From Vicinamibacteria bacterium (lineage in GTDB: Bacteria > Acidobacteriota > Vicinamibacteria > Marinacidobacterales > Marinacidobacteraceae): a stretch of DNA of 64,000 nt. The DNA is taken from positions 928,001-992,000 of the forward strand of contig OY821641.1 in NCBI GenBank assembly GCA_963555995.3, in the 5' to 3' direction. Positions 53,545-64,000 of the stretch are shown here, piece after piece. Each line of letters starts with the position of its first letter. Within the stretch, counting starts at the first letter, position 1. Below the pieces are notes generated by a model. That model had not been told where the DNA came from. It searched no databases and saw only the letters and a program-made list of their open reading frames with translations. A program made the position numbers and the translations under genes.

Positions 53545-55728
53545 ATGTCCCGGGTGCGCGTGGCGGTCGCGGTTCTCGCAACCCTCGGCTGGGGCGTGCC
53601 GTCATGGGCCTTCTCCGGCCGGGTGCTCCTCGACAGCGGCGAGCCGGCGGCCGGCGCGATCGTCCAGATCCTGGGGCATCCCGGCTCGGTGGTGACCGAC
53701 GGCGAGGGCCGTTTCGAGTGGCTTCCGGACCCCGCGCCGCCGTTCCACGTGCTGGTGGTCCTTCCCGGAGATCGCTACACCTCCCCGGTCTTCGTCCAGT
53801 CCCTCGACGGATCGCCGGTGGAGATCGAGGTCGAAACCCTCGAGATCTCGGAGAGCGTGACGATCACGAGCGGAGCGGTCCCGCACACCGAGGCCACTCC
53901 CGGAAGCGCCCCGGCGGTCATCTCCGGCGAGGCGATCCGCACCCGCCAGGCCCCCCGGCTCATTGATGTGCTGGAGGCGGTCCCCGGCGGCGGCCGCAGC
54001 AGCGACCTCCATGCCGGCGTCCCCTCCATCCGCGGCATGTCAAGGGGCCGGACGGTGCTGCTCCTCGACGGCGCGCGGATCACGACGGAGCGCCGCGCCG
54101 GGGCGAGCGCCTCGTTCCTCGACCCGTTCTTCCTCGAGACGGTCGAGGTAGTGCGCGGCCCGTCCTCGGTGGCCTACGGCTCCGACGCCTTCGGCGGCGT
54201 CATCCACGCCCGCACCCGGCGCCCGGTCCCCGGGAGCCCCTTGGCGGCGCGCGGCCGGGCCACCCTGGGCGCCGGGCTGCCGGAGGCGAGCTTCGGGGCG
54301 GAGGTCACGGGGTCGGCGCTCGGGGCCGGCCTCCTTGCCCAGGTGCGGCGGCGCGTCTTCTCCGAGTACTCGAGCCCCGAGGGCAGGGTGGCGGGATCGG
54401 GCGCCCGGGATTTCGGTTTCCTGCTGCGCGGCGCGCGGGAGGTTGCGGGCGGCCTGCTCGGGGTGGGACTCCAGGTGGATGCGGCGCGGGACGTGGGCCG
54501 CCCGCGGCGTTCGCCGTCGTTCACGTCCTATCCGTTCGAGGACTCGGCCCGGGTGGTGGCCGACTACCAGCTCGCGCCGCGCTGGGGGTTCGCGCGGCTC
54601 GACGCCACGGGGTTCCTGGGGGCCCACCGTCTCCTGACCCGGCGCGAGGAGGGCGGCAGCGCGGCGGATTCCGAGGTGGCGGCGCATGACTTCATGCTGC
54701 GCACGCGCGGCGTCCGTCCCTTCGGCAACGGCCGTCTCGAACTCGGCGCCGAGGTCCTGAGCCGTTTCGGCCTCTATTCCGGTTCGGGGGTGGACGGCAG
54801 GACGTCGGCCCACCGGGAAGGCGAGGAGTTCGCCTCGGGCCTCGACGGCGCCCTCCGCCGCGAGGCATCGGTGTACGGCCACGCGGAACAGCCGTTCCAC
54901 GCGCGGCTCGCCGGGAGCGCCGGCGCGCGGCTTTCCGGGGTCAGCACCAGGGCGGGAGAGGATGCCCGCGCCGGTACGACCACCAGCCACGGAGCCCTGA
55001 GCGGTTTTGTCGCGTTGCGGGCCGACCTGGCGGACGGGCTCGCGCTGACCGGGCAGCTCTCGCGCGGTTTCCGCGACCCGACCCTGTCGGATCGCTACTA
55101 CGCGGGGATCACCGGCCGCGGGTTCGCCTACGGCAATCCCGACCTGACCCCGGAGCGTTCGCTCCAGGCGGACCTGTCGCTTCGCTACGACGGCGACGGC
55201 GTTCACGGCGGCCTCTACGCCTATCGCTACCGGATCACGGATCTCGTCGAGCGCTACGAGAACGGAGAAGACCTCTACTTCTTCCGGAATCGCGGCGAGG
55301 CCCGGCTCTCCGGCGTCGAGTTCGAGATCCAGGTCGGCGCCTCGGGGGACCCCTTCCTGCTGGATCTCGCCGGCGGTCTGACGCGGGGAAAGACGGAGGA
55401 CGGGGCGGCGCTCGACGGGGTGCCTCCGGCCAACTTCCGGGCGGGACTGCGCCGCCGCCTTCCTGCCCGGAGCTTCGCCGAGGTCGTGCTGCTGGCCTTC
55501 GCCGCCGACCGGGACCCGGGTCCCACCGAGTCGGTCCTGGATGCCTACGCCCGCCTCGACGCCGCCCTGGGCTTCCCGATCACCGGCGGCGCCGAACTGC
55601 GCCTCTCCGGCCGCAACCTCCTGAACGCCGCGTATCCCATCAGCGCCGACGCGCGTGCAGTGCTGGCTCCGGGCAGGAGTCTGGTCGGCACCATCGTCTG
55701 GAACCTCGGGGCGTCGTCGGGGCCCTAG
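53545..55728 (+). CDS. TonB-dependent receptor
   Basis: Carboxypeptidase-regulatory-like N-domain, plug (IRG, EVVRGPSS..YG..A.GGVI), GFR.P, GNPDL.PE, NLLN..Y, PGR. Confidence 0.9.
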   Translation: MSRVRVAVAVLATLGWGVPSWAFSGRVLLDSGEPAAGAIVQILGHPGSVVTDGEGRFEWLPDPAPPFHVLVVLPGDRYTSPVFVQSLDGSPVEIEVETLEISESVTITSGAVPHTEATPGSAPAVISGEAIRTRQAPRLIDVLEAVPGGGRSSDLHAGVPSIRGMSRGRTVLLLDGARITTERRAGASASFLDPFFLETVEVVRGPSSVAYGSDAFGGVIHARTRRPVPGSPLAARGRATLGAGLPEASFGAEVTGSALGAGLLAQVRRRVFSEYSSPEGRVAGSGARDFGFLLRGAREVAGGLLGVGLQVDAARDVGRPRRSPSFTSYPFEDSARVVADYQLAPRWGFARLDATGFLGAHRLLTRREEGGSAADSEVAAHDFMLRTRGVRPFGNGRLELGAEVLSRFGLYSGSGVDGRTSAHREGEEFASGLDGALRREASVYGHAEQPFHARLAGSAGARLSGVSTRAGEDARAGTTTSHGALSGFVALRADLADGLALTGQLSRGFRDPTLSDRYYAGITGRGFAYGNPDLTPERSLQADLSLRYDGDGVHGGLYAYRYRITDLVERYENGEDLYFFRNRGEARLSGVEFEIQVGASGDPFLLDLAGGLTRGKTEDGAALDGVPPANFRAGLRRRLPARSFAEVVLLAFAADRDPGPTESVLDAYARLDAALGFPITGGAELRLSGRNLLNAAYPISADARAVLAPGRSLVGTIVWNLGASSGP

Positions 55729-55756
55729 CAGCCGGTAGCAAGACCCGCGCGGCGTC

Positions 55757-55960
55757 TCGCCCGTCCTCCGGACGGGTGATTCCGCAGGAGCGCCGGTCTT
55801 CAGGCCGGCATCGTCCCCCGCGGGGGGACGAAACTCCGATGCTTCGTTCGCCGTATGGCAGGGCGTCACCGGAGACGGCGCTCCGCCATGCGGCAGGGTG
55901 ATCACGGGAGTTTCGCCCGTCCGCCGGACGGGCGATGCTGCTCCGAAGAACGGCGCTCCC
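55757..55960. repeat. REP cluster/REPIN: unit at 55787-55837 (+) and inverted unit at 55906-55960 (-), plus extra hairpins
   Basis: GGAGCGCCGGTCTTCAGGCCGGCATCGTCCCCC..GGGGGACGAAACTCC and reverse-oriented degenerate copy. Confidence 0.75.
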
Positions 55961-56361
55961 GGCGGTCTCCCTCGGTGGCTCGCACCATTTCCGGAACACC
56001 ACGCCAGTCCACAGTGACAGTTTTTGGGATATGCCGTGAACCACAAACGTAACGGCCAACGGACTTCCGACGCCAGTCTTTGACCAGGACCGCGACAACT
56101 CCCGATCGAATGGCTGTCGTAGCGCCACGGACGCTGCCGACCATCGTTCGTGACTGATTGTCCTTACATTCATTACAGCCTGTTTTCGTGGACAGTCAGA
56201 GTATTGGGACTGGTTCGGACGGGCGCCCCGCCGTGAAACAAAGCCAAGTACGTCGTACGAAACAGGGAATCACCCTTTGGTTCGCATGCGGAGTTCGGTT
56301 ACCGCCTGCGATATGTGACACATGAAACTGACACGTATTACGTTGAGATGAGGAATGGACG

Positions 56362-58059
56362 ATGAATCTCACGGTTTCCGAGTTGGCTCTTGCCGTAGGC
56401 AAACAGGAAAACTATGTGCGTCAACACATACATCGGCGTCATCTCACGGTTCGCCGACAGGGACGAACCGTCTGGGTTCCTCTTCACGAGGCCGTGAAGT
56501 GGGCGGCAACCCGGGGACTTTCGTTCGTGCCGCCCAAACGGATCGCCCTGACGTTACTCGACCAGGGGGAAAGGGTCGGGCGGCTCACGGTCCTCGCCTG
56601 GCATCCCGAAAGCGGTCTGGCGCGGAACCTGTTCACGTTTATGCGTCATCGAAAACGCGAGGCCGTGGGACCGTGGTCCGGCAAACCGGATGCAACGTGG
56701 ACCCTGGAGGAGCTCGATGGTGATCTGAGTCTGCTGTCTTTCAACGCTTCGTACGAGGAATGCCAGCAGCACGTCGAAGGCATCCTTCAGTCGGGAGTAC
56801 TTGAGGCGCACGAACTCGAGATTCACTACATCCTCGAAGACAATCCGAGGAACCACTGGGCCTACCGGGACTACCGGCGCCGGTCGGAGAGTTCGATACG
56901 GAGCCCGTTCTCGACGCACAGCGCCGCGATCACCGAGTACTGGAGTTTCGAAGACGAACCTCGCAAGCAGTGGTTGTCGGTGTCGGACCCCCTCGCCGGG
57001 CGATTGCGCGTGGCGCTTCGGCGTCTCGGCTTTCCGCTCGACAGATGTCCGGAACGAGTCGGCAACCTGCTGGTCGCCGGCGCCGAGGACGCGATCACGT
57101 GTCGCCTCACCGCGCATCACGACCGGACGCTTCGACTTCATGTCGAAGCCAGGGGGCTTCTCCCCCAGACCTATCGCGCGACCGTATGGGCAAGTCACAG
57201 CGGGGACGAGGTGCTTCGAAGGGAGGTGCCGGTCATTCCGGGGCAGACGACGATCGAACTCGTTTCCGAGGTGGACCGCGCCGGTTTCGCTGTCTGCCGC
57301 GATTTCGACGGGCAGTACGTGGATCTGGTGGAGAACCTGCCCGGGATGGAGCCGTCCCCTGCGGGGCGGCGGGGCGACCCGCCGCTCCAGCAGGTCCGGG
57401 ATCCGGTGGCGCGCCTTCCGCAGCGGGTCCGGCCGTCTGGTTCGGACGCTGCCGTTTCGGGGCGTCCCGGGCCGACCGTACGGCTCGACCGGGGGATCCG
57501 GCAGCAGTGGCTGCACCGCGTTGCGCATCAGAGGGAGGCCGGGGCTCGCCGCGACGCCAACCTGGTGCGCTTCGGCCCCGGCCGGTTCGCGGACGCGGCG
57601 CGGCATTTCCTCTACCTCGTTTCGCGCGACTCCGACCACCCGGGGCCGACCTACCTGGCCGATCCGTGTCTCGTCGGACACACGCTGGCGGACGAGGTGA
57701 CCCGGCTCTTCGGGGAGATGTGCCAGGCGATGCGGCGCGGGCCGCTGCGGATCCTGTGCGCGGAGCGCCAACCGAACGACGCTCCGACGTGGTGGGCCCG
57801 CTACCTGCGGCAGACCGACGCCGACGTGACCGTGCGGACCTTCGTGAATCGCTCCGATGAGCGGGGGTGCTTTCACGACCGATACCTGATCACTCCCGCG
57901 CGCGAAGTCCTGATCACGAATTCGTTCAACGGCTGGAATCGTTTCGGCGTGACCTTCGTGAGTCTTCCCTACGGGCTCTACCGCGCGGAAGCGGAGAAGC
58001 TGTGGGCTCTGGATCCGGACACCCCCGCCTCGGACGTCCTCGTCCGCGAGATTTCGTGA
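56362..58059 (+). CDS. Uncharacterised protein: N-terminal HTH (MerR/excisionase-like), C-terminal PLD-like HDR domain
   Basis: LTVSELA.AVG....YVR..I; YLADPC...FHDRYLI....ITNSFNG; SD-like GAGG upstream. Confidence 0.65.
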   Translation: MNLTVSELALAVGKQENYVRQHIHRRHLTVRRQGRTVWVPLHEAVKWAATRGLSFVPPKRIALTLLDQGERVGRLTVLAWHPESGLARNLFTFMRHRKREAVGPWSGKPDATWTLEELDGDLSLLSFNASYEECQQHVEGILQSGVLEAHELEIHYILEDNPRNHWAYRDYRRRSESSIRSPFSTHSAAITEYWSFEDEPRKQWLSVSDPLAGRLRVALRRLGFPLDRCPERVGNLLVAGAEDAITCRLTAHHDRTLRLHVEARGLLPQTYRATVWASHSGDEVLRREVPVIPGQTTIELVSEVDRAGFAVCRDFDGQYVDLVENLPGMEPSPAGRRGDPPLQQVRDPVARLPQRVRPSGSDAAVSGRPGPTVRLDRGIRQQWLHRVAHQREAGARRDANLVRFGPGRFADAARHFLYLVSRDSDHPGPTYLADPCLVGHTLADEVTRLFGEMCQAMRRGPLRILCAERQPNDAPTWWARYLRQTDADVTVRTFVNRSDERGCFHDRYLITPAREVLITNSFNGWNRFGVTFVSLPYGLYRAEAEKLWALDPDTPASDVLVREIS

Positions 58060-60200
58060 TGCCGGTCAAACCGGGCGGCGCTTCCTCCCTGTCAGCGGAA
58101 GCCCGCGAGACGGTCTGGCGGATCTTCGGGGCCGGAGCCCGGCCGGGGGGCAGGGGCTCGGTATTCGACAACATCGAACCCATGATCCGCGAGCATGTGC
58201 CGCCGGCCGACCGGGACCGCGCCATCGTGACGATCGGCGACTGGTTCGAATCGGGCGCCCACACCCGGTGGCTGAAACCGGACCACGCCGAGTTGGCCGC
58301 CGATCTGGTGATCCAGGGGGTCGGTCCGCGCCGCTCCGAAGATGCCGTTTGGGCGATCGGATCGATCGGAGTCGAACTGTCGGCCGCCATGATCAGGCAG
58401 CGCTGGGCCGGGGAAGAGATCCGAACCCTCGTGGACGCGGCCGTGAACGTGCTGAACCGGACCGAGGCGCACGTGCGGCCGGAGGATCGCTTGCCCGGGT
58501 TGGAGAACGAGGGGGCGGGCAGCTTCCCGGGAGCCGTATCCCGGGACGGGATCGTGGCCGCGTTTGCGCGGCTCGAGGAAGAGAGTCTGGAACTCGTGAA
58601 CCAGGGACTGCACCCGACGGTAGCCAATCTGATTGACCTGGCGGTCGAGCTCTTCCCGGAACAGGTTCCCGCGCTTGTCTCCCGGCTGGCGGCGCCGGCC
58701 ATGCAGGCCAGGGCGGCGCGACGCGCGGTGACCCGGACGCCTCCCGGCGATCCGGGGGCGATCGTCGGATGGATCACCGAACATGCCGCCGATACGGCCG
58801 TTGCGCTCGCCATCGTGCATGTCCTGGGCGCGGCGAGGAAACTGGACGACACCCGGGCGCCGCGAAGCGACCCTTCGCGGGCGCCCGCGGGGAAGGACAG
58901 TCCCGGGCAGGCGCCGGAACATCCCGCGGATGCCGCCGGAAACCTGGTTCTTCGACTCCTGGAGCGTCTGGCGAGCCTGGGCTCGCCGGATTGCCTGCGG
59001 TGGATCGGTGAGGTGCTGAACCAGGCTCCGCGGGCCCTGTCGGCGCCGGGCGCCGGAGAGAAGCCGGGGCTCCTGGCCCGCGTCGAGGACGAGTGCACGC
59101 GACTGGCGGTGAGACGCTTCCGCGAGTCGGGATCCGCGCCTTTGCTCTCGCACTTCCAGGTGGGGCTCCTGCCCGGTCGGGGGAGGCACTGGGTGCGCCA
59201 CCAGGCGGCGATTGCCCGGGCGATGCGCGAATCGGATCCGCGACGGGCCGAGGAGCTCGCGCGGGCGACCCTTGCCGAACACCGGCGACAGTTGGCGGAA
59301 CAGCCGGATGGCCACTACCTGGCCCCCGACTGGGACCGCTGGAGCGATCGGGAATGGCTTGAGGGCCTGGGAACGGCGCTCGCCCTGGGACAGAGGGATC
59401 TGGATCTCCGGGCCTGGGTCGCCAACGAATGCCGGGACCTCCCCCTGAGCGTCTGGGACGCCGAGGAGGATCCCGATGGATTCGCGACGGCGGAGCAGAT
59501 TGCGCAGCACTGGTTCCTGGTCGCGCTGCTCGCGATTCCGCAGCGGCGGGAGTTCGGCCGAGCTCTCGGGCCGCCCGTGGTGCGCGCCCTCGCCGAAGCG
59601 GTCTGGGCTCACTGCAGGTTCTGCCGGCCGTATCTCCCGACCCATCCGGAAGCGTCGGTCGCCGCCGAGTTGGCGGCCCGCTACGCAATGCAGAGCGGGC
59701 GGGACAACGACCAGTGGCTGCTCGACCAGGCGCGCGGCGAAGGCGTGGGTCCCGGAGCTCTCCGCGTCCTGCTGGAGGAGCGGCGATCCCGCCGCCATCC
59801 GCCGGTCGAAGACCTCTCGGACCCTGACGACCTGATCGTGGCGGAACTGGTGCGGATCGCGCTGGACCGATTCGACGATGGCGGCCAGTTCGACCTGGAG
59901 AGCCTTCGCGACTGGGGAAGGCTCTGGCTCCTGGTCGGCGCGGTGGACCCGGCGGAGAGGACGGCCATGGCCATCGTCAGTTTCCCCCTGCGCGCCGCGG
60001 ATCGGCACTCGCGGATCCTGGCGCTCAAGCTGCTCGGGCTGGTCGTTCGCCACCGCAAACCGCGTCCCGGCGTGGCCGAGTACGTGGTACCGCTCTACAA
60101 CCAGCTCTGGCCGGTGTTCGCCGTCACCCCGAACCAGGAAAGGGAAGACCGCGAGGAAATCGAGAAGGCTTTCCTGGGTTCGGACCTCATCGCCGGGTAG
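58059..60200 (+). CDS. Uncharacterised large, probably alpha-helical protein (about 713 aa), coupled to upstream gene
   Basis: TGATG stop/start overlap; long Trp/Leu/Ala-rich ORF; no recognised motif. Confidence 0.65.
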   Translation: MPVKPGGASSLSAEARETVWRIFGAGARPGGRGSVFDNIEPMIREHVPPADRDRAIVTIGDWFESGAHTRWLKPDHAELAADLVIQGVGPRRSEDAVWAIGSIGVELSAAMIRQRWAGEEIRTLVDAAVNVLNRTEAHVRPEDRLPGLENEGAGSFPGAVSRDGIVAAFARLEEESLELVNQGLHPTVANLIDLAVELFPEQVPALVSRLAAPAMQARAARRAVTRTPPGDPGAIVGWITEHAADTAVALAIVHVLGAARKLDDTRAPRSDPSRAPAGKDSPGQAPEHPADAAGNLVLRLLERLASLGSPDCLRWIGEVLNQAPRALSAPGAGEKPGLLARVEDECTRLAVRRFRESGSAPLLSHFQVGLLPGRGRHWVRHQAAIARAMRESDPRRAEELARATLAEHRRQLAEQPDGHYLAPDWDRWSDREWLEGLGTALALGQRDLDLRAWVANECRDLPLSVWDAEEDPDGFATAEQIAQHWFLVALLAIPQRREFGRALGPPVVRALAEAVWAHCRFCRPYLPTHPEASVAAELAARYAMQSGRDNDQWLLDQARGEGVGPGALRVLLEERRSRRHPPVEDLSDPDDLIVAELVRIALDRFDDGGQFDLESLRDWGRLWLLVGAVDPAERTAMAIVSFPLRAADRHSRILALKLLGLVVRHRKPRPGVAEYVVPLYNQLWPVFAVTPNQEREDREEIEKAFLGSDLIAG

Positions 60201-60291
60201 CGTCGGACCGCGGGTCCGTCCCTGCCGTGCCCCGGGGTCTGGGGATGCCCGCACTCCCGACCCCGTAACATGGCGCGGCGACCCGCGAACC

Positions 60292-60906
60292 ATGACGGAG
60301 CCCGTGGACGAAGCGACCACCCACCGGGAACGGATGCGGACGCTCCAGGCGGAGGTCCGGGAGAAGCGCGCGGCGGCGAGCGACCCGGACCGCGGGCTGG
60401 TGCTGGTCCACACCGGGGACGGGAAGGGGAAGTCCAGCTCCGCCTTCGGGGTCATCGCGCGGTCGCTCGGCTGGGGCCGGAAGGTCGGGGTGGTGCAGTT
60501 CATCAAGGGTAACTGGAAGACCGGCGAGCGGCAGTTCTTCGAGCGCTTTCCGGACCAGGTGGTCTGGCGCACTATGGGCGAAGGGTTCACCTGGGACACT
60601 CAGGACCGCGCCCGGGACATCGAAGTGGCCGCCGGCGCCCTCGCCGTCGCCCGGGAGATGCTGGCGTCCGGAGATTTCGACCTGGTCGTCCTCGACGAGA
60701 TCAACGTCGTGATGAGCTTCGACTACCTGGAAACGGATGCGGTCCTCAAGGCGCTCGGAGCTCGCGCGCCCAGGACCAGCGTGATCCTGACCGGCCGCGG
60801 CGTGCCTCCCGAGGTCACGGAATACGCCGACCTGGTCACCGAGATGCGCGAGGTGAAACACCCCTTCACCACCGGCATCAAGGCCCAGCCCGGCATTGAC
60901 TACTGA
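60292..60906 (+). CDS. cobO: Cob(I)yrinic acid a,c-diamide adenosyltransferase
   Basis: HTGDGKGKSS.AFG, VQFIKG, GEGFTW.TQ, LDEIN, TGR, KHPF..G.KAQ.GI.Y. Confidence 0.95.
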   Translation: MTEPVDEATTHRERMRTLQAEVREKRAAASDPDRGLVLVHTGDGKGKSSSAFGVIARSLGWGRKVGVVQFIKGNWKTGERQFFERFPDQVVWRTMGEGFTWDTQDRARDIEVAAGALAVAREMLASGDFDLVVLDEINVVMSFDYLETDAVLKALGARAPRTSVILTGRGVPPEVTEYADLVTEMREVKHPFTTGIKAQPGIDY

Positions 60907-60919
60907 GATCCGGCCGACT

Positions 60920-60972
60920 GGGACCGCCGGTCTCCAGACCGGCATCGTCCCCCGTCAGGGGGACGAAACTCC
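60920..60972 (+). repeat. REP-family two-hairpin unit
   Basis: GGGACCGCCGGTCTCCAGACCGGCATCGTCCCCC-GTCA-GGGGGACGAAACTCC; direct-repeat homolog of 55787-55837. Confidence 0.8.
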
Positions 60973-61083: not shown

Positions 61084-62034
61084 CTAGGTCAAGCCTTCCG
61101 TACCCATTGCCGTCACATGCCGCGCAGTGTCGTCGGCGACAACAACTCGCATCGCTCTGTTTCCCCAGGTCACTTTCCCAGTCTTTCCGAAGAGATCACC
61201 CTCGGCTGACTTCCCAAGGCCGTAGCCGTCGCGAAAGTGGATCGAAACTACCCAGAGGTGACCAAACCGAGCCGGATACCAAAGTGGTCCGCCCCCGAGC
61301 CTCATTTCACCCCCCCTCTCAGCAAGGGACTCCACCCACTCGTAGAACGACGTGTCCCGACCTCTCGGAAGTAGCACGAGACGGCTTCCCATCTTGACTG
61401 CCCAACACGGCCTCTGTTCACAGTTCATCAGAATTCCGTTTACGTCCCCGAATTCAGGTGGAGCGTCACGAGAAAAATGGCGGATTATCTCCTGACTCGG
61501 TTCCACAATCTGCCTGCGGACATGTTTGATGGCCTCTCCCTTGGCGTACAGGTATCCATGTTTTCCCAGCAAGGAAAATACAGAAAGATATGCCGCCTTC
61601 AACCACGAAACACTTGTGTAGTGTGGCGCGGCGACTCTCCCCGTCAAAGTGATGGTCCTTGCGGAGCGAAGTGACCTGCTAAAGACCTCCTGTGGTACAC
61701 GTAGTTTTGACAGATGAGAGCTGATATTGCCTCGTTCGTCTACCGATATGCGCGCGGTGTGAATCGGAATACCTTGGATTTCCAGTTGTACCTTTTGTTC
61801 GCGTTGAGACTCTACGGTTGCCATTTCCATTCGGCTGGCGCTGTTGTTGCACTTGCTACAGGTGAGGCACATCGCGAACCCACCAGCGTTGAATGCCTTG
61901 GGAGGAACGTGTTCGAGCGTTACTCCTTGGCCCTTCTGAACAGCCGACTCTGTGAAACCATTCAGGCAGATGGGGCACCGATCATTGCCTGAAGCGAACA
62001 GGTCAAGCCGTATTTTTCGTGACGTTCGACTCAT
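61084..62034 (-). CDS. HNH endonuclease with C-terminal extension, low GC
   Basis: CPIC...T.EHVPP.A.......C..CNN zinc-HNH motif. Confidence 0.8.
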   Translation of the reverse strand: MSRTSRKIRLDLFASGNDRCPICLNGFTESAVQKGQGVTLEHVPPKAFNAGGFAMCLTCSKCNNSASRMEMATVESQREQKVQLEIQGIPIHTARISVDERGNISSHLSKLRVPQEVFSRSLRSARTITLTGRVAAPHYTSVSWLKAAYLSVFSLLGKHGYLYAKGEAIKHVRRQIVEPSQEIIRHFSRDAPPEFGDVNGILMNCEQRPCWAVKMGSRLVLLPRGRDTSFYEWVESLAERGGEMRLGGGPLWYPARFGHLWVVSIHFRDGYGLGKSAEGDLFGKTGKVTWGNRAMRVVVADDTARHVTAMGTEGLT

Positions 62035-62136
62035 CAGAAAATTCAGTTCCAGGACGGAGCGAAGCGGATACTACAGACCGACCCTAATCTGGACCGGGCG
62101 AAAGATGAAGTAGGCAGATGCCGCCCCGCCGAACGC

Positions 62137-64000
62137 TCAACTTCCGGAGACGCGAAGGGACCGGCGGCGTTTGCGTTTCTTCTTGGTAGCGGCGGCGGTC
62201 AGCGGGGCGCGGAGACGTTCGTACAGGGTGAAGAGATGTTCGACGCGCTCGCGCTCGGAGCGGAACGGGCGGGGGCGGTAGAGGCGGTCCACGGCGCGGT
62301 CGAGCGCTCGGTGGGCGCGGCGCAGTTCGACGGGCATCAACTCTGGATCGTAGAGGTCCGCGAGGGTCGCGCCGGGGTGTACGGCGCGGGCATCAAGGAC
62401 GGCTTGGGCGAGCGAGTCGAGGGGAGCCAGGTCCGCGTCCTTCGGGGGCAGTGGGAAAGCGTTGTAGACGAGACCGATTGAGTACCGATAGCGGCTCTCC
62501 AGTCGTCCGCCGATGTGACGCAGCCAAGCCATGTGCATGGTGGACGTCAGCAGGGCGAAGGTTGCCTTCTCGGCACCGAGCAATATCTTCAGGGCATTGC
62601 TGGGAACGACCGGGGGCTCCATCCAAGCCATCGGCGCATACTCGCGCCGCTCAGAGCTTGTTTCCGGGACTACGAGGAACGGTGCTGACGGTATGACGTT
62701 GACGTGATACAGCGTTGGGGTTTCAGCCAGATCCCGGGTTGACGCGGCCCGGCTTGCCAACCGGACAGCCTTGACAGCAGCGATCCGTCGGCGGACTTCC
62801 GGGAGCTGTCGCAGCGTCTGTGGCGGTGCATCGTGGAGCGCCAGAATCCAGCGATCCCCACCCTGCAGGAACTCCCGGCTTCCAACGTAGGGCCGGAGGA
62901 ACTGTGCAGCAGCGGGCTCGCTTGCGAGTAGGTCAACCCTCTCCTCCGCATTGAAGATGTAGTTCCCACCGTCAATCGGTTTGGACCCAATGACCAGCTT
63001 TGGGAGACCGTTGATCGGCCGGCTCTCCTCCCGCACCACCAGGTGCGGATCGGCCAGCCCACCCGCATCGAACAGGTACGGCGACAGCACCGCGTGGGCG
63101 CTCTCGTGCGGATCGCCCTTCACGTCGTCGTACGAAAACAGCCGCCGCGCCGCCGGAACCCCCTCCCGGTCGTCCAGCCCGATGATGACGACATGCACGT
63201 GCGCCATCCCCCGCGCGTCCGAGCCCCACGCGAACGTCCGGTGCGCGAAGGCGATCTCCAGCCCCGAGCGCCCGAACAGGATCGGCCACAACTGCGCCAC
63301 CTGCTCGCCCTGCGTGATCGAGTTCGTCGCCACGAAGCCGATCCGCGCCCGCCCGCCCGGCGGGCCGCTCTTCCCGACGTACTCCCCTGCCCGGAGGAAC
63401 CACGCCGTCACGTAGTCGAGCGTCCCCCCGGTCCCGCCGAGCGCCGCGATCCGCCGGACCTGCGCCCGCTGTTCCGGTGACTGGAACTTCGCGCCCCCGA
63501 ACGGCGGGTTCCCGAACACGAAGGAACAGTCCTCCGCCGGCAGCAGATCCTCCCAGTCCATCTCCAGCGCGTCCCCGCAGTGGATGTGCGGGGAGCGCTT
63601 GAGCGGAATGCGGGCGTAGGACTGGCCGAACTCGAGGCTGAGCTCGTTGTTCATCAGGTGGTCCATCATCCACAGCGCCACCTCGGCGATCCGGGCCGGG
63701 AACTCCCCGATCTCGATCCCGTAGAACCGGTCCACGTCGAGCCGGGACAGCGAACTCACGTCGAACTGGAGGACCTGCCGCTCCTCGCTCCCCAGCAGTT
63801 CGCGGAGCACTTCGAGTTCCAGCCGCCGCAGCTCGCGGTAGGCGATCACCAGGAAGTTGCCGCAGCCGCACGCCGGATCGAAGAACGTGAGCCGGCCGAG
63901 CTTCTCCTGGAACTCGCGCAGCCGCGGGAGCCGGCCGCGACGGAGCGCCTTGATCCGGGCGAACTCCCCCCACAGATCGTCGAGGAAGAGCGGCTCGATG
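62137..64000 (-). CDS. MmeI-family Type IIL restriction-modification enzyme (5' part outside window)
   Basis: FDPACGCGNFL, GNPPF, TNSITQGEQ, SSERR.Y, GRLESRYRYS, LADLYDP..MP. Confidence 0.92.
   Translation of the reverse strand, partial: IEPLFLDDLWGEFARIKALRRGRLPRLREFQEKLGRLTFFDPACGCGNFLVIAYRELRRLELEVLRELLGSEERQVLQFDVSSLSRLDVDRFYGIEIGEFPARIAEVALWMMDHLMNNELSLEFGQSYARIPLKRSPHIHCGDALEMDWEDLLPAEDCSFVFGNPPFGGAKFQSPEQRAQVRRIAALGGTGGTLDYVTAWFLRAGEYVGKSGPPGGRARIGFVATNSITQGEQVAQLWPILFGRSGLEIAFAHRTFAWGSDARGMAHVHVVIIGLDDREGVPAARRLFSYDDVKGDPHESAHAVLSPYLFDAGGLADPHLVVREESRPINGLPKLVIGSKPIDGGNYIFNAEERVDLLASEPAAAQFLRPYVGSREFLQGGDRWILALHDAPPQTLRQLPEVRRRIAAVKAVRLASRAASTRDLAETPTLYHVNVIPSAPFLVVPETSSERREYAPMAWMEPPVVPSNALKILLGAEKATFALLTSTMHMAWLRHIGGRLESRYRYSIGLVYNAFPLPPKDADLAPLDSLAQAVLDARAVHPGATLADLYDPELMPVELRRAHRALDRAVDRLYRPRPFRSERERVEHLFTLYERLRAPLTAAATKKKRKRRRSLRVSGS

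Follow-up and report, generated by a model that had tools for sequence, protein, structure and literature searches.

The VPA1262 family has been renamed Juno in a preprint (bioRxiv 10.64898/2026.08.01.741415), which reports more than 100-fold protection against 4 of 12 coliphages and requires of a Juno member at least 70% coverage of the Juno profile. The part of the preprint available to us contains no domain analysis or mechanism for Juno, and the term "PLD" (phospholipase D) occurs 0 times in it. Two profiles describe the family: NF040699 (VPA1262 family), with 1026 positions and a curated cut-off of 325 bits, and NF040700 (VPA1262_N_dom), with 478 positions and a cut-off of 80 bits; true NF040699 members score 520 to 711 bits. 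Here, we analyzed a stretch of 64,000 nucleotides, referred to as the window, from a Vicinamibacteria bacterium (assembly GCA_963555995.3, contig OY821641.1, positions 928,001 to 992,000, forward strand), and in particular a pair of adjacent genes, gene 1 and gene 2 (Table 1), that a first-pass annotation made from the sequence alone had proposed as a candidate anti-phage module. By profile comparison, gene 1 is a remote homolog of the N-terminal half of Juno/VPA1262. Judged by the criteria of the family itself, the pair does not belong to it, but it probably works like Juno: we consider it likely to be a Juno-like anti-phage system of two subunits that represses itself and in which an enzyme of the PLD fold, probably a nuclease, is gated by a helical subunit.

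In profile-profile comparisons with HHalign, gene 1 matched four split VPA1262_N proteins with a probability of 98.3% (E 1.9e-14 over 298 columns), which is about level with the value for the N-terminal part of fused Juno against the same four proteins (96.9%). Against the N-terminal half of 38 fused VPA1262-family proteins, the probability was 91.8% (E 7e-7). The match survived removal of the sequence duplicated across both alignments, and when the PLD domain was left out a weak match remained (E 1e-4 to 1e-3, versus E of at least 0.07 for 10 shuffles). The remote homology to NF040700 is colinear, with gene 1 residues from about 120/215 to 540 following the Juno N-terminal domain and the motifs DPY...HDR...SxN aligned (DP[YC]...FHDR...SxN in common). 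The first-pass annotation could not match the pair to a named system, a statement that no longer holds for gene 1; neither protein had a Pfam, PADLOC or NCBIfam match above the cut-off. A sequence search against solved structures likewise gave no match (best E 0.46 and 3.1). Further likenesses to Juno are a large, probably helical second half and the defense-island context. The differences are that Juno is one chain whereas the pair consists of two genes, that the host range is another, and that the pair adds an N-terminal Xis-like helix-turn-helix (HTH) domain with an operator-like element. Instead of a single chain of about 1000 to 1150 amino acids (aa), proteins of 565 and 713 aa are encoded here, by two genes in all loci seen, and no fused form was present among the best 150 of 167 profile matches, the longest of which has 577 aa. 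We found no description of the two-gene form in the openly readable literature consulted.

Gene 2 is predicted to be a helical solenoid. Its model is all-helical, with a predicted local distance difference test (pLDDT) score of 84.5; the best fold match is unspecific (Z 9.2 at a root mean square deviation [rmsd] of 9.4), and fold searches including Foldseek returned generic solenoids only. By a crude measure, helical periodicity amounts to 0.68 in the C-terminal half of Juno and to 0.69 in gene 2, and the sequence suggests that the Juno half is helical too. An organization in two genes is also found with the VPA1262_N domain itself: NF040700 was above its cut-off in 5 of 401 genomes, in the form of four split pairs (L074, L075, L077, and L078; 517 to 604 aa followed by 479 to 683 aa) and one fused protein of 1027 aa. 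The split pairs, for which we found no name, resemble the present one in that the N-domain gene is followed by a second gene, and they gave the best profile match to gene 1; they differ in that no HTH was matched and that their partners correspond neither to gene 2 nor to the C-terminal half of Juno. These partners are unannotated and unrelated to each other across subgroups. Lamassu, Gabija, Dsr1 or PDC genes are present at three of these five loci; L074 is located between Lamassu and Gabija genes, and L075 adjoins a split Dsr1-like pair. A match between the C-terminal half of Juno and the split partners (97.5%) was rejected as circular, as it was gone after removal of one sequence common to both alignments. 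The search with NF040699 in 401 Gammaproteobacteria-class genomes returned no match, but the controls were silent too, so that it is uninformative.

The C-terminal domain of gene 1 is predicted to adopt the PLD-nuclease fold (mean pLDDT of the gene 1 model, 78), in agreement with the earlier proposal of a PLD domain of the MIT_C/VPA1262 type. The best structural matches are NucT (Table 1), Nuc (Z 11.5) and Zucchini (Z 10.8), followed by MITD1 (Z 9.3), and Foldseek was in agreement. Sequence identity to the three nucleases is 10 to 14%, and they differ from gene 1 also in that its PLD domain is fused to HTH and immunoglobulin (Ig)-like domains. The canonical motif of PLD nucleases is HxK; gene 1 has HDR instead. 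An aspartate after strand 2 and the HDR motif were conserved in 53/53 and 97/97 sequences, and D434, H505, D506, R507, S521, and W525 were invariant in all 53 near-full-length sequences. The predicted model and the alignment therewith show the fold and the acidic-plus-HDR signature of the MIT_C/HDR-type PLD superfamily. As for the DPC motif, which had been taken as either a variant or a sign of decay, 32 of the 53 sequences have Y at position 436, 14 have C, and the other 7 have H, F or R; DPC is therefore a variant of the window's genus and not decay. Fold matches of gene 1 to NFAT were rejected (rmsd above 14, template modeling [TM] score about 0.2).

According to the accessible part of PMC12065111, the same signature is present in MIT_C, in PB-PLD1 of Menshen and in BrxL. 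Gene 1 shares with MITD1, PB-PLD1, and the C terminus of BrxL the PLD fold, the acidic residue after strand 2 and the HDR motif; it differs in that the pair has no ParB/ABC-ATPase or AAA+ partner, and the Menshen and BREX models of PADLOC gave no match. These comparisons bear on a defense system of another kind, in which the PLD fold would act on or bind lipids or serve as a non-catalytic oligomer scaffold, as proposed for MITD1, and no nuclease would be involved. The fold matches include phospholipases, FAM83, TrmB, and MITD1, whose Z scores are only a few units away from those of the nucleases, HDR stands in place of HxK, and the title of the MITD1 paper speaks of a membrane-binding PLD fold. 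The top matches are, however, the single-domain nucleases NucT, Nuc, and Zucchini, the Menshen paper (PMC12065111) lists the related PB-PLD1, in the part accessible, as a potential nuclease, and the gene 1 model has no long membrane-spanning helix pattern, a result obtained with no dedicated predictor run. We regard a lipid or scaffold role as very unlikely.

A genome scan identified 56 loci, which belong to ten phyla according to the record titles. Gene 2 lies directly 3' of gene 1 in all 55 loci that extend past gene 1, and the 56th stops at a contig edge; the co-conservation that the first-pass annotation had made a test of its proposal is thus present. The junctions mostly overlap or abut. 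A remote homolog about 26% identical to gene 1 is also adjoined by a gene 2 homolog (E 6.5e-40), and among 61 genomes 14 had both genes and 47 neither. Trees of the two genes were compared for 51 paired loci, five of the 56 being left out for want of a full-length copy of one gene. The two largely agree: of the supported splits (32 in one tree and 36 in the other), 27 are common to both, there are 3 conflicts, and the distances correlate with an r of 0.97; the gene 1 tree is a quick version. That the pair is not a product of chance follows from the number of homologs (438 for gene 1 and 196 for gene 2), from ratios of nonsynonymous to synonymous substitution rates (dN/dS) against 12 congeners of 0.19 and 0.24, which indicate purifying selection, and from the coverage of the region by contigs from independent runs.

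Phyla are intermixed in the quick tree, and gene 1 identity amounts to 63 to 76% in seven selected pairs with different phylum labels. This fits horizontal spread, the phylum labels being those of the submitters' titles. The distribution over the ten phyla is patchy, which is in line with a defense function. More distant relatives were found in Endomicrobiaceae and Bacteriovoracia bins. A search with the PLD part only gave no relative in plasmids, and in viral contigs 0 of 51 candidates were confirmed. The host lineages are typical sponge symbionts, and one of the runs holding the pair is labeled sponge metagenome; no RNA run was among the holders listed. Several loci carry lesions that may represent decay or assembly errors: gene 2 contains a stop in L001, L043, and L056, and gene 1 has an insertion after about residue 120 in L037 and frame breaks in L028 and L056. 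Locus L018 is titled Gemmatimonadetes, yet it has flanking genes and a short branch in common with L020, L023, and L028, which are Latescibacterota loci, and its title may be mislabeled.

A strict coupling of two genes is also what a toxin-antitoxin or addiction module would show, in which the PLD protein would be a constitutive toxin neutralized by gene 2, the HTH would autoregulate the operon, and post-segregational killing would take the place of phage sensing. The coupled layout with an autoregulatory element, the fact that the genes are never apart in the loci examined, and the integrases, resolvases, insertion sequence elements or relaxase near 16 of the 43 loci would be in line with such a module. 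Against it speaks that the closest characterized relative is a single-chain anti-phage protein and that the HTH sits on the putative toxin. Furthermore, in L001 the frame of gene 1 is intact while gene 2 is interrupted by a stop, though this may be an assembly error. We consider an addiction module quite unlikely.

The reading as a self-repressed system draws on the N terminus of gene 1 and on the DNA preceding it. The winged-HTH-like N terminus noted initially is supported by the predicted model. HTH_17 and TIGR01764 matches occur only in homologs (PF12728 on 3 of 120 of the matches listed; TIGR01764, below threshold, on 9 of 39, with up to 23.9 versus 28.8 bits), and the HTH of the window rests on its fold match (Z 7.3, rmsd 1.7). 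The segment has a dN/dS of 0.08. Of the PADLOC 2.0 components, gene 1 matched only mad1 (E 0.025, residues 1 to 43) and gene 2 none. Gene 1 is thus similar to MAD1 of MADS and to Xis/BldC regulators by this weak match and by its N-terminal fold; it is dissimilar to MAD1 in that effector and HTH form one protein and that the unit includes no further MADS gene. The MADS preprint, in the part available, describes MAD1 as resembling widespread regulators and as largely dispensable.

Upstream of gene 1, most homologs have TTGACA and then GTAA/TTAC half-sites with a 13-bp period, which extend over the spacer and the -10 region. This palindrome, a pattern defined after inspection of the upstream sequences, was present at 28 of the 35 non-genus loci that have the HTH, whereas it occurred in 1 of 493 upstream regions taken as controls and in 166 of 7000 shuffles. 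None of the 4 loci of a clade without HTH (L041, L043, L045, and L053) had it, and a fifth HTH-less locus had one match far upstream, inside the neighboring gene. The HTH-less clade has a conserved upstream sequence of its own. Because the element overlaps the promoter and its presence tracks that of the HTH, these sequences suggest that the HTH autorepresses the operon. In the window's genus, the element takes the form of TGACA repeats, which keep both the period and the spacing to the start codon; a sigma-70 scan of the window gave 0 consensus promoter sites.

Outside the genus, the neighbors of homologs include type I, II, IIG, ISP, and III restriction-modification systems, AbiE, a CBASS cyclase, SIR2-HerA, Septu-like, Bunzi-like, HEC, and PDC genes, toxin-antitoxin genes, integrases, and a relaxase. 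Of about 450 neighbor families, the 148 nearest were scanned by Pfam and 106 selected neighbors by PADLOC. When generic and weak matches were removed on both sides, 27 of 43 loci had a match within 5.2 kb, versus 4 of 16 control windows (p 0.018), so that the defense context predicted for the homologs was found under this rule. Since the background is high and the loci are related, we take this enrichment as moderate evidence. Sponge symbionts are described as rich in defense genes in the accessible part of PMC5649159. One of the control windows (L089; G063:C1:1800000-1810400) contains four consecutive large ankyrin-repeat genes.

A number of results weigh against a Juno-like defense function of the pair. 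The window proteins match neither NF040699 nor NF040700; NF040700 does recognize 29 of 39 gene 1-family proteins, at 12 to 52 bits, which speaks for the link to Juno, but none reaches 80 bits. For gene 2 and the C-terminal half of Juno, the HHalign probability was below 1%, in a comparison of shallow alignments of helical solenoids, which diverge fast, nor was homology detected between gene 2 and the genes that accompany split VPA1262_N genes. In the accessible part of PMC12065111, the enzymatic activity of HDR-type PLD folds is termed a hypothesis, catalysis being undemonstrated. When any PADLOC match with E of at most 1e-12 within 5.2 kb was counted, the figures were 30 of 43 loci versus 7 of 16 controls (p 0.078); moreover, the 16 control windows, although evenly spaced, stem from only two host genomes, some of the scanned neighbors were chosen by hand, and the loci are interrelated. 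Within the window's genus, 13 of the 15 other genomes carry the pair, which makes it nearly core, 0 of 13 congener loci have a scanned defense neighbor, the surroundings being housekeeping, the palindrome is present in 0 of 14 loci, and residues 329 to 375 of gene 1 form a relaxed segment.

The genus data raise the question of whether the cassette, derived from a mobile defense operon, has been domesticated there and now has a changed or diminished function, which might be constitutive, low-level or regulatory. As far as the contigs reach, all 13 congener loci have the pair at a fixed site by the TonB receptor and cobalamin genes, and it was found in 0 of 45 further relatives. The two congener genomes without the pair also lack the flanking receptor, which suggests that their absence reflects assembly gaps. 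The stem branch of the genus is long (0.57), residues 329 to 375, which have a beta-strand-like pattern in other phyla according to the alignment, are degenerate in the genus, TGACA repeats have replaced the palindrome, and 7 otherwise conserved positions of gene 1 and 13 of gene 2 are changed, including C319Y and P482L. Nevertheless, the catalytic candidates are intact, 102 of 109 and 85 of 98 outside-conserved positions, respectively, are kept, and the HTH remains under the constraint given above. An empty allele exists in a close relative, because in run X6 one contig joins the receptor gene directly to cobO (only 61 other letters separate positions 55702 and 60290), while a second contig of this run spans 55730 to 60416 and contains the whole cassette, and sister genera have other genes after the receptor. 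We judge domestication to be unlikely. A congener bin contains a second copy of mobile type (L085; G002:C71), which is 40% identical to gene 1 of the window, has DPY and an intact linker, and adjoins an MmeI-type gene 80% identical to that of the window.

In the Juno-like system that we favor, the HTH of the gene 1 protein would bind the promoter repeats and repress the operon, and the two proteins would assemble into a counterpart of the single-chain Juno protein. On perceiving a phage cue, the solenoid would then allow two single-motif PLD domains to come together in one active site, as such domains do in Nuc and Zucchini. The enzyme would cut nucleic acid and thereby stop the infection or the infected cell. 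The roles assigned in the first-pass annotation, with gene 2 as the sensor and gene 1 as the nuclease effector, are likewise an inference. If so, the Juno lineage would extend to a two-gene form that is missed by the PADLOC, Pfam, and NCBIfam cut-offs; the candidate active site D...HDR...S in common with Juno would be the first for that family; and the pair would offer a natural split into an effector half and a helical half as well as a testable autoregulatory loop. A broader scheme, which we advance tentatively and consider rather doubtful, is that the VPA1262 N-domain represents a portable PLD effector core plugged into unrelated helical sensors, either fused or split, and that the present branch added autorepression, spread over ten phyla of one host-associated community and is being domesticated in the window's genus, where operator and linker change together. 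Were this true, a swap of the solenoid would change the phage detected.

Table 1. Positions of the features of the two-gene locus in the window
Feature	Position	Strand	Description
Gene 1	56362-58059	+	565 aa; HTH plus remote homolog of the VPA1262/Juno N-terminal domain
Gene 2	58059-60200	+	713 aa; predicted all-alpha solenoid (HEAT/ARM-like arrangement), without specific homolog of known function
Stop/start overlap TGATG of gene 1 and gene 2	58057-58061	+	Probable translational coupling
Operator-like element	56316..56341	+	TGACA 56316-56320 and 56329-56333 (13-bp period), TTAC 56338-56341; putative HTH binding
Shine-Dalgarno-like GAGGA 5' of gene 1	56350..56354	+	
Predicted winged HTH, Xis/BldC type, residues 1-52	56362..56517	+	Xis 4j2n Z 7.3, rmsd 1.7, 51 aligned; BldC 6amk Z 7.2
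Conserved alpha/beta domain, residues 68-240	56563..57081	+	Fold not assigned; barely probed by fold search
Predicted Ig-like beta-sandwich, residues 241-330	57082..57351	+	Z up to 8.9 (101 aligned, rmsd 3.6), glycosidase and other Ig-like domains; dN/dS 0.07
Low-confidence Pro/Gly/Arg-rich segment, residues 329-375	57346..57486	+	pLDDT <50; dN/dS 0.67
Predicted PLD-nuclease fold, residues 397-565	57550..58056	+	NucT 6ehi Z 12.9, rmsd 3.0, 143 aligned
Candidate catalytic residues	D434 57661-57663; H505-D506-R507 57874-57882; S521 57922-57924	+	
Cassette, approximate extent, TonB-receptor gene to cobO	55729..60289	.	Contigs of run X6

The basic description of the locus given initially, with two open reading frames, their TGATG overlap, the motifs YLADPC, FHDRYLI, and NSFNG, a TonB-dependent receptor upstream and cobO downstream, was accurate throughout. 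So was the low-GC 5' part of gene 1: GC content is 0.54 to 0.62 across positions 56000 to 57000, versus about 0.70 around, and GC content at third codon positions is 0.70 in the first 600 nucleotides of gene 1, 0.83 in its remainder, and 0.90 to 0.91 in the flanking genes. The low third-position value of the 5' part is common to 12 congeners (0.68 to 0.75).

The window also contains, from 61084 to 64000, a gene with weak HNH similarity and a type IIG enzyme of the MmeI type, both of which congeners lack at the same site. The two had been placed about 1 kb from the pair and counted in favor of a defense role. The first, a 316-aa gene (61084-62034), indeed starts about 0.9 kb past gene 2, but its resemblance to HNH nucleases is weak (HNH_5 E 0.023, below the cut-off; PtuB E 0.0023), whereas the MmeI-type enzyme is a strong match yet about 1.9 kb away. 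Because congeners are without both, and have housekeeping surroundings there, these neighbors are weak evidence, and we do not count them among the parts of the unit. Contig depth was lower over the HNH gene than over the pair in two runs. Farther upstream in the window (48116/48722-50436), an N6/N4 DNA methylase gene is followed by a gene of 272 to 317 aa without Pfam match, possibly its restriction enzyme, and congeners as well as sister genera lack these two at the syntenic position. Finally, palindromic repeats similar to repetitive extragenic palindromic (REP) sequences (55807-55831 and 60941-60966) bracket a stretch bounded by the end of the TonB-receptor gene on one side and that of cobO on the other; the strict pattern has 6 copies in the genome, and the read depth across the repeats is very high.

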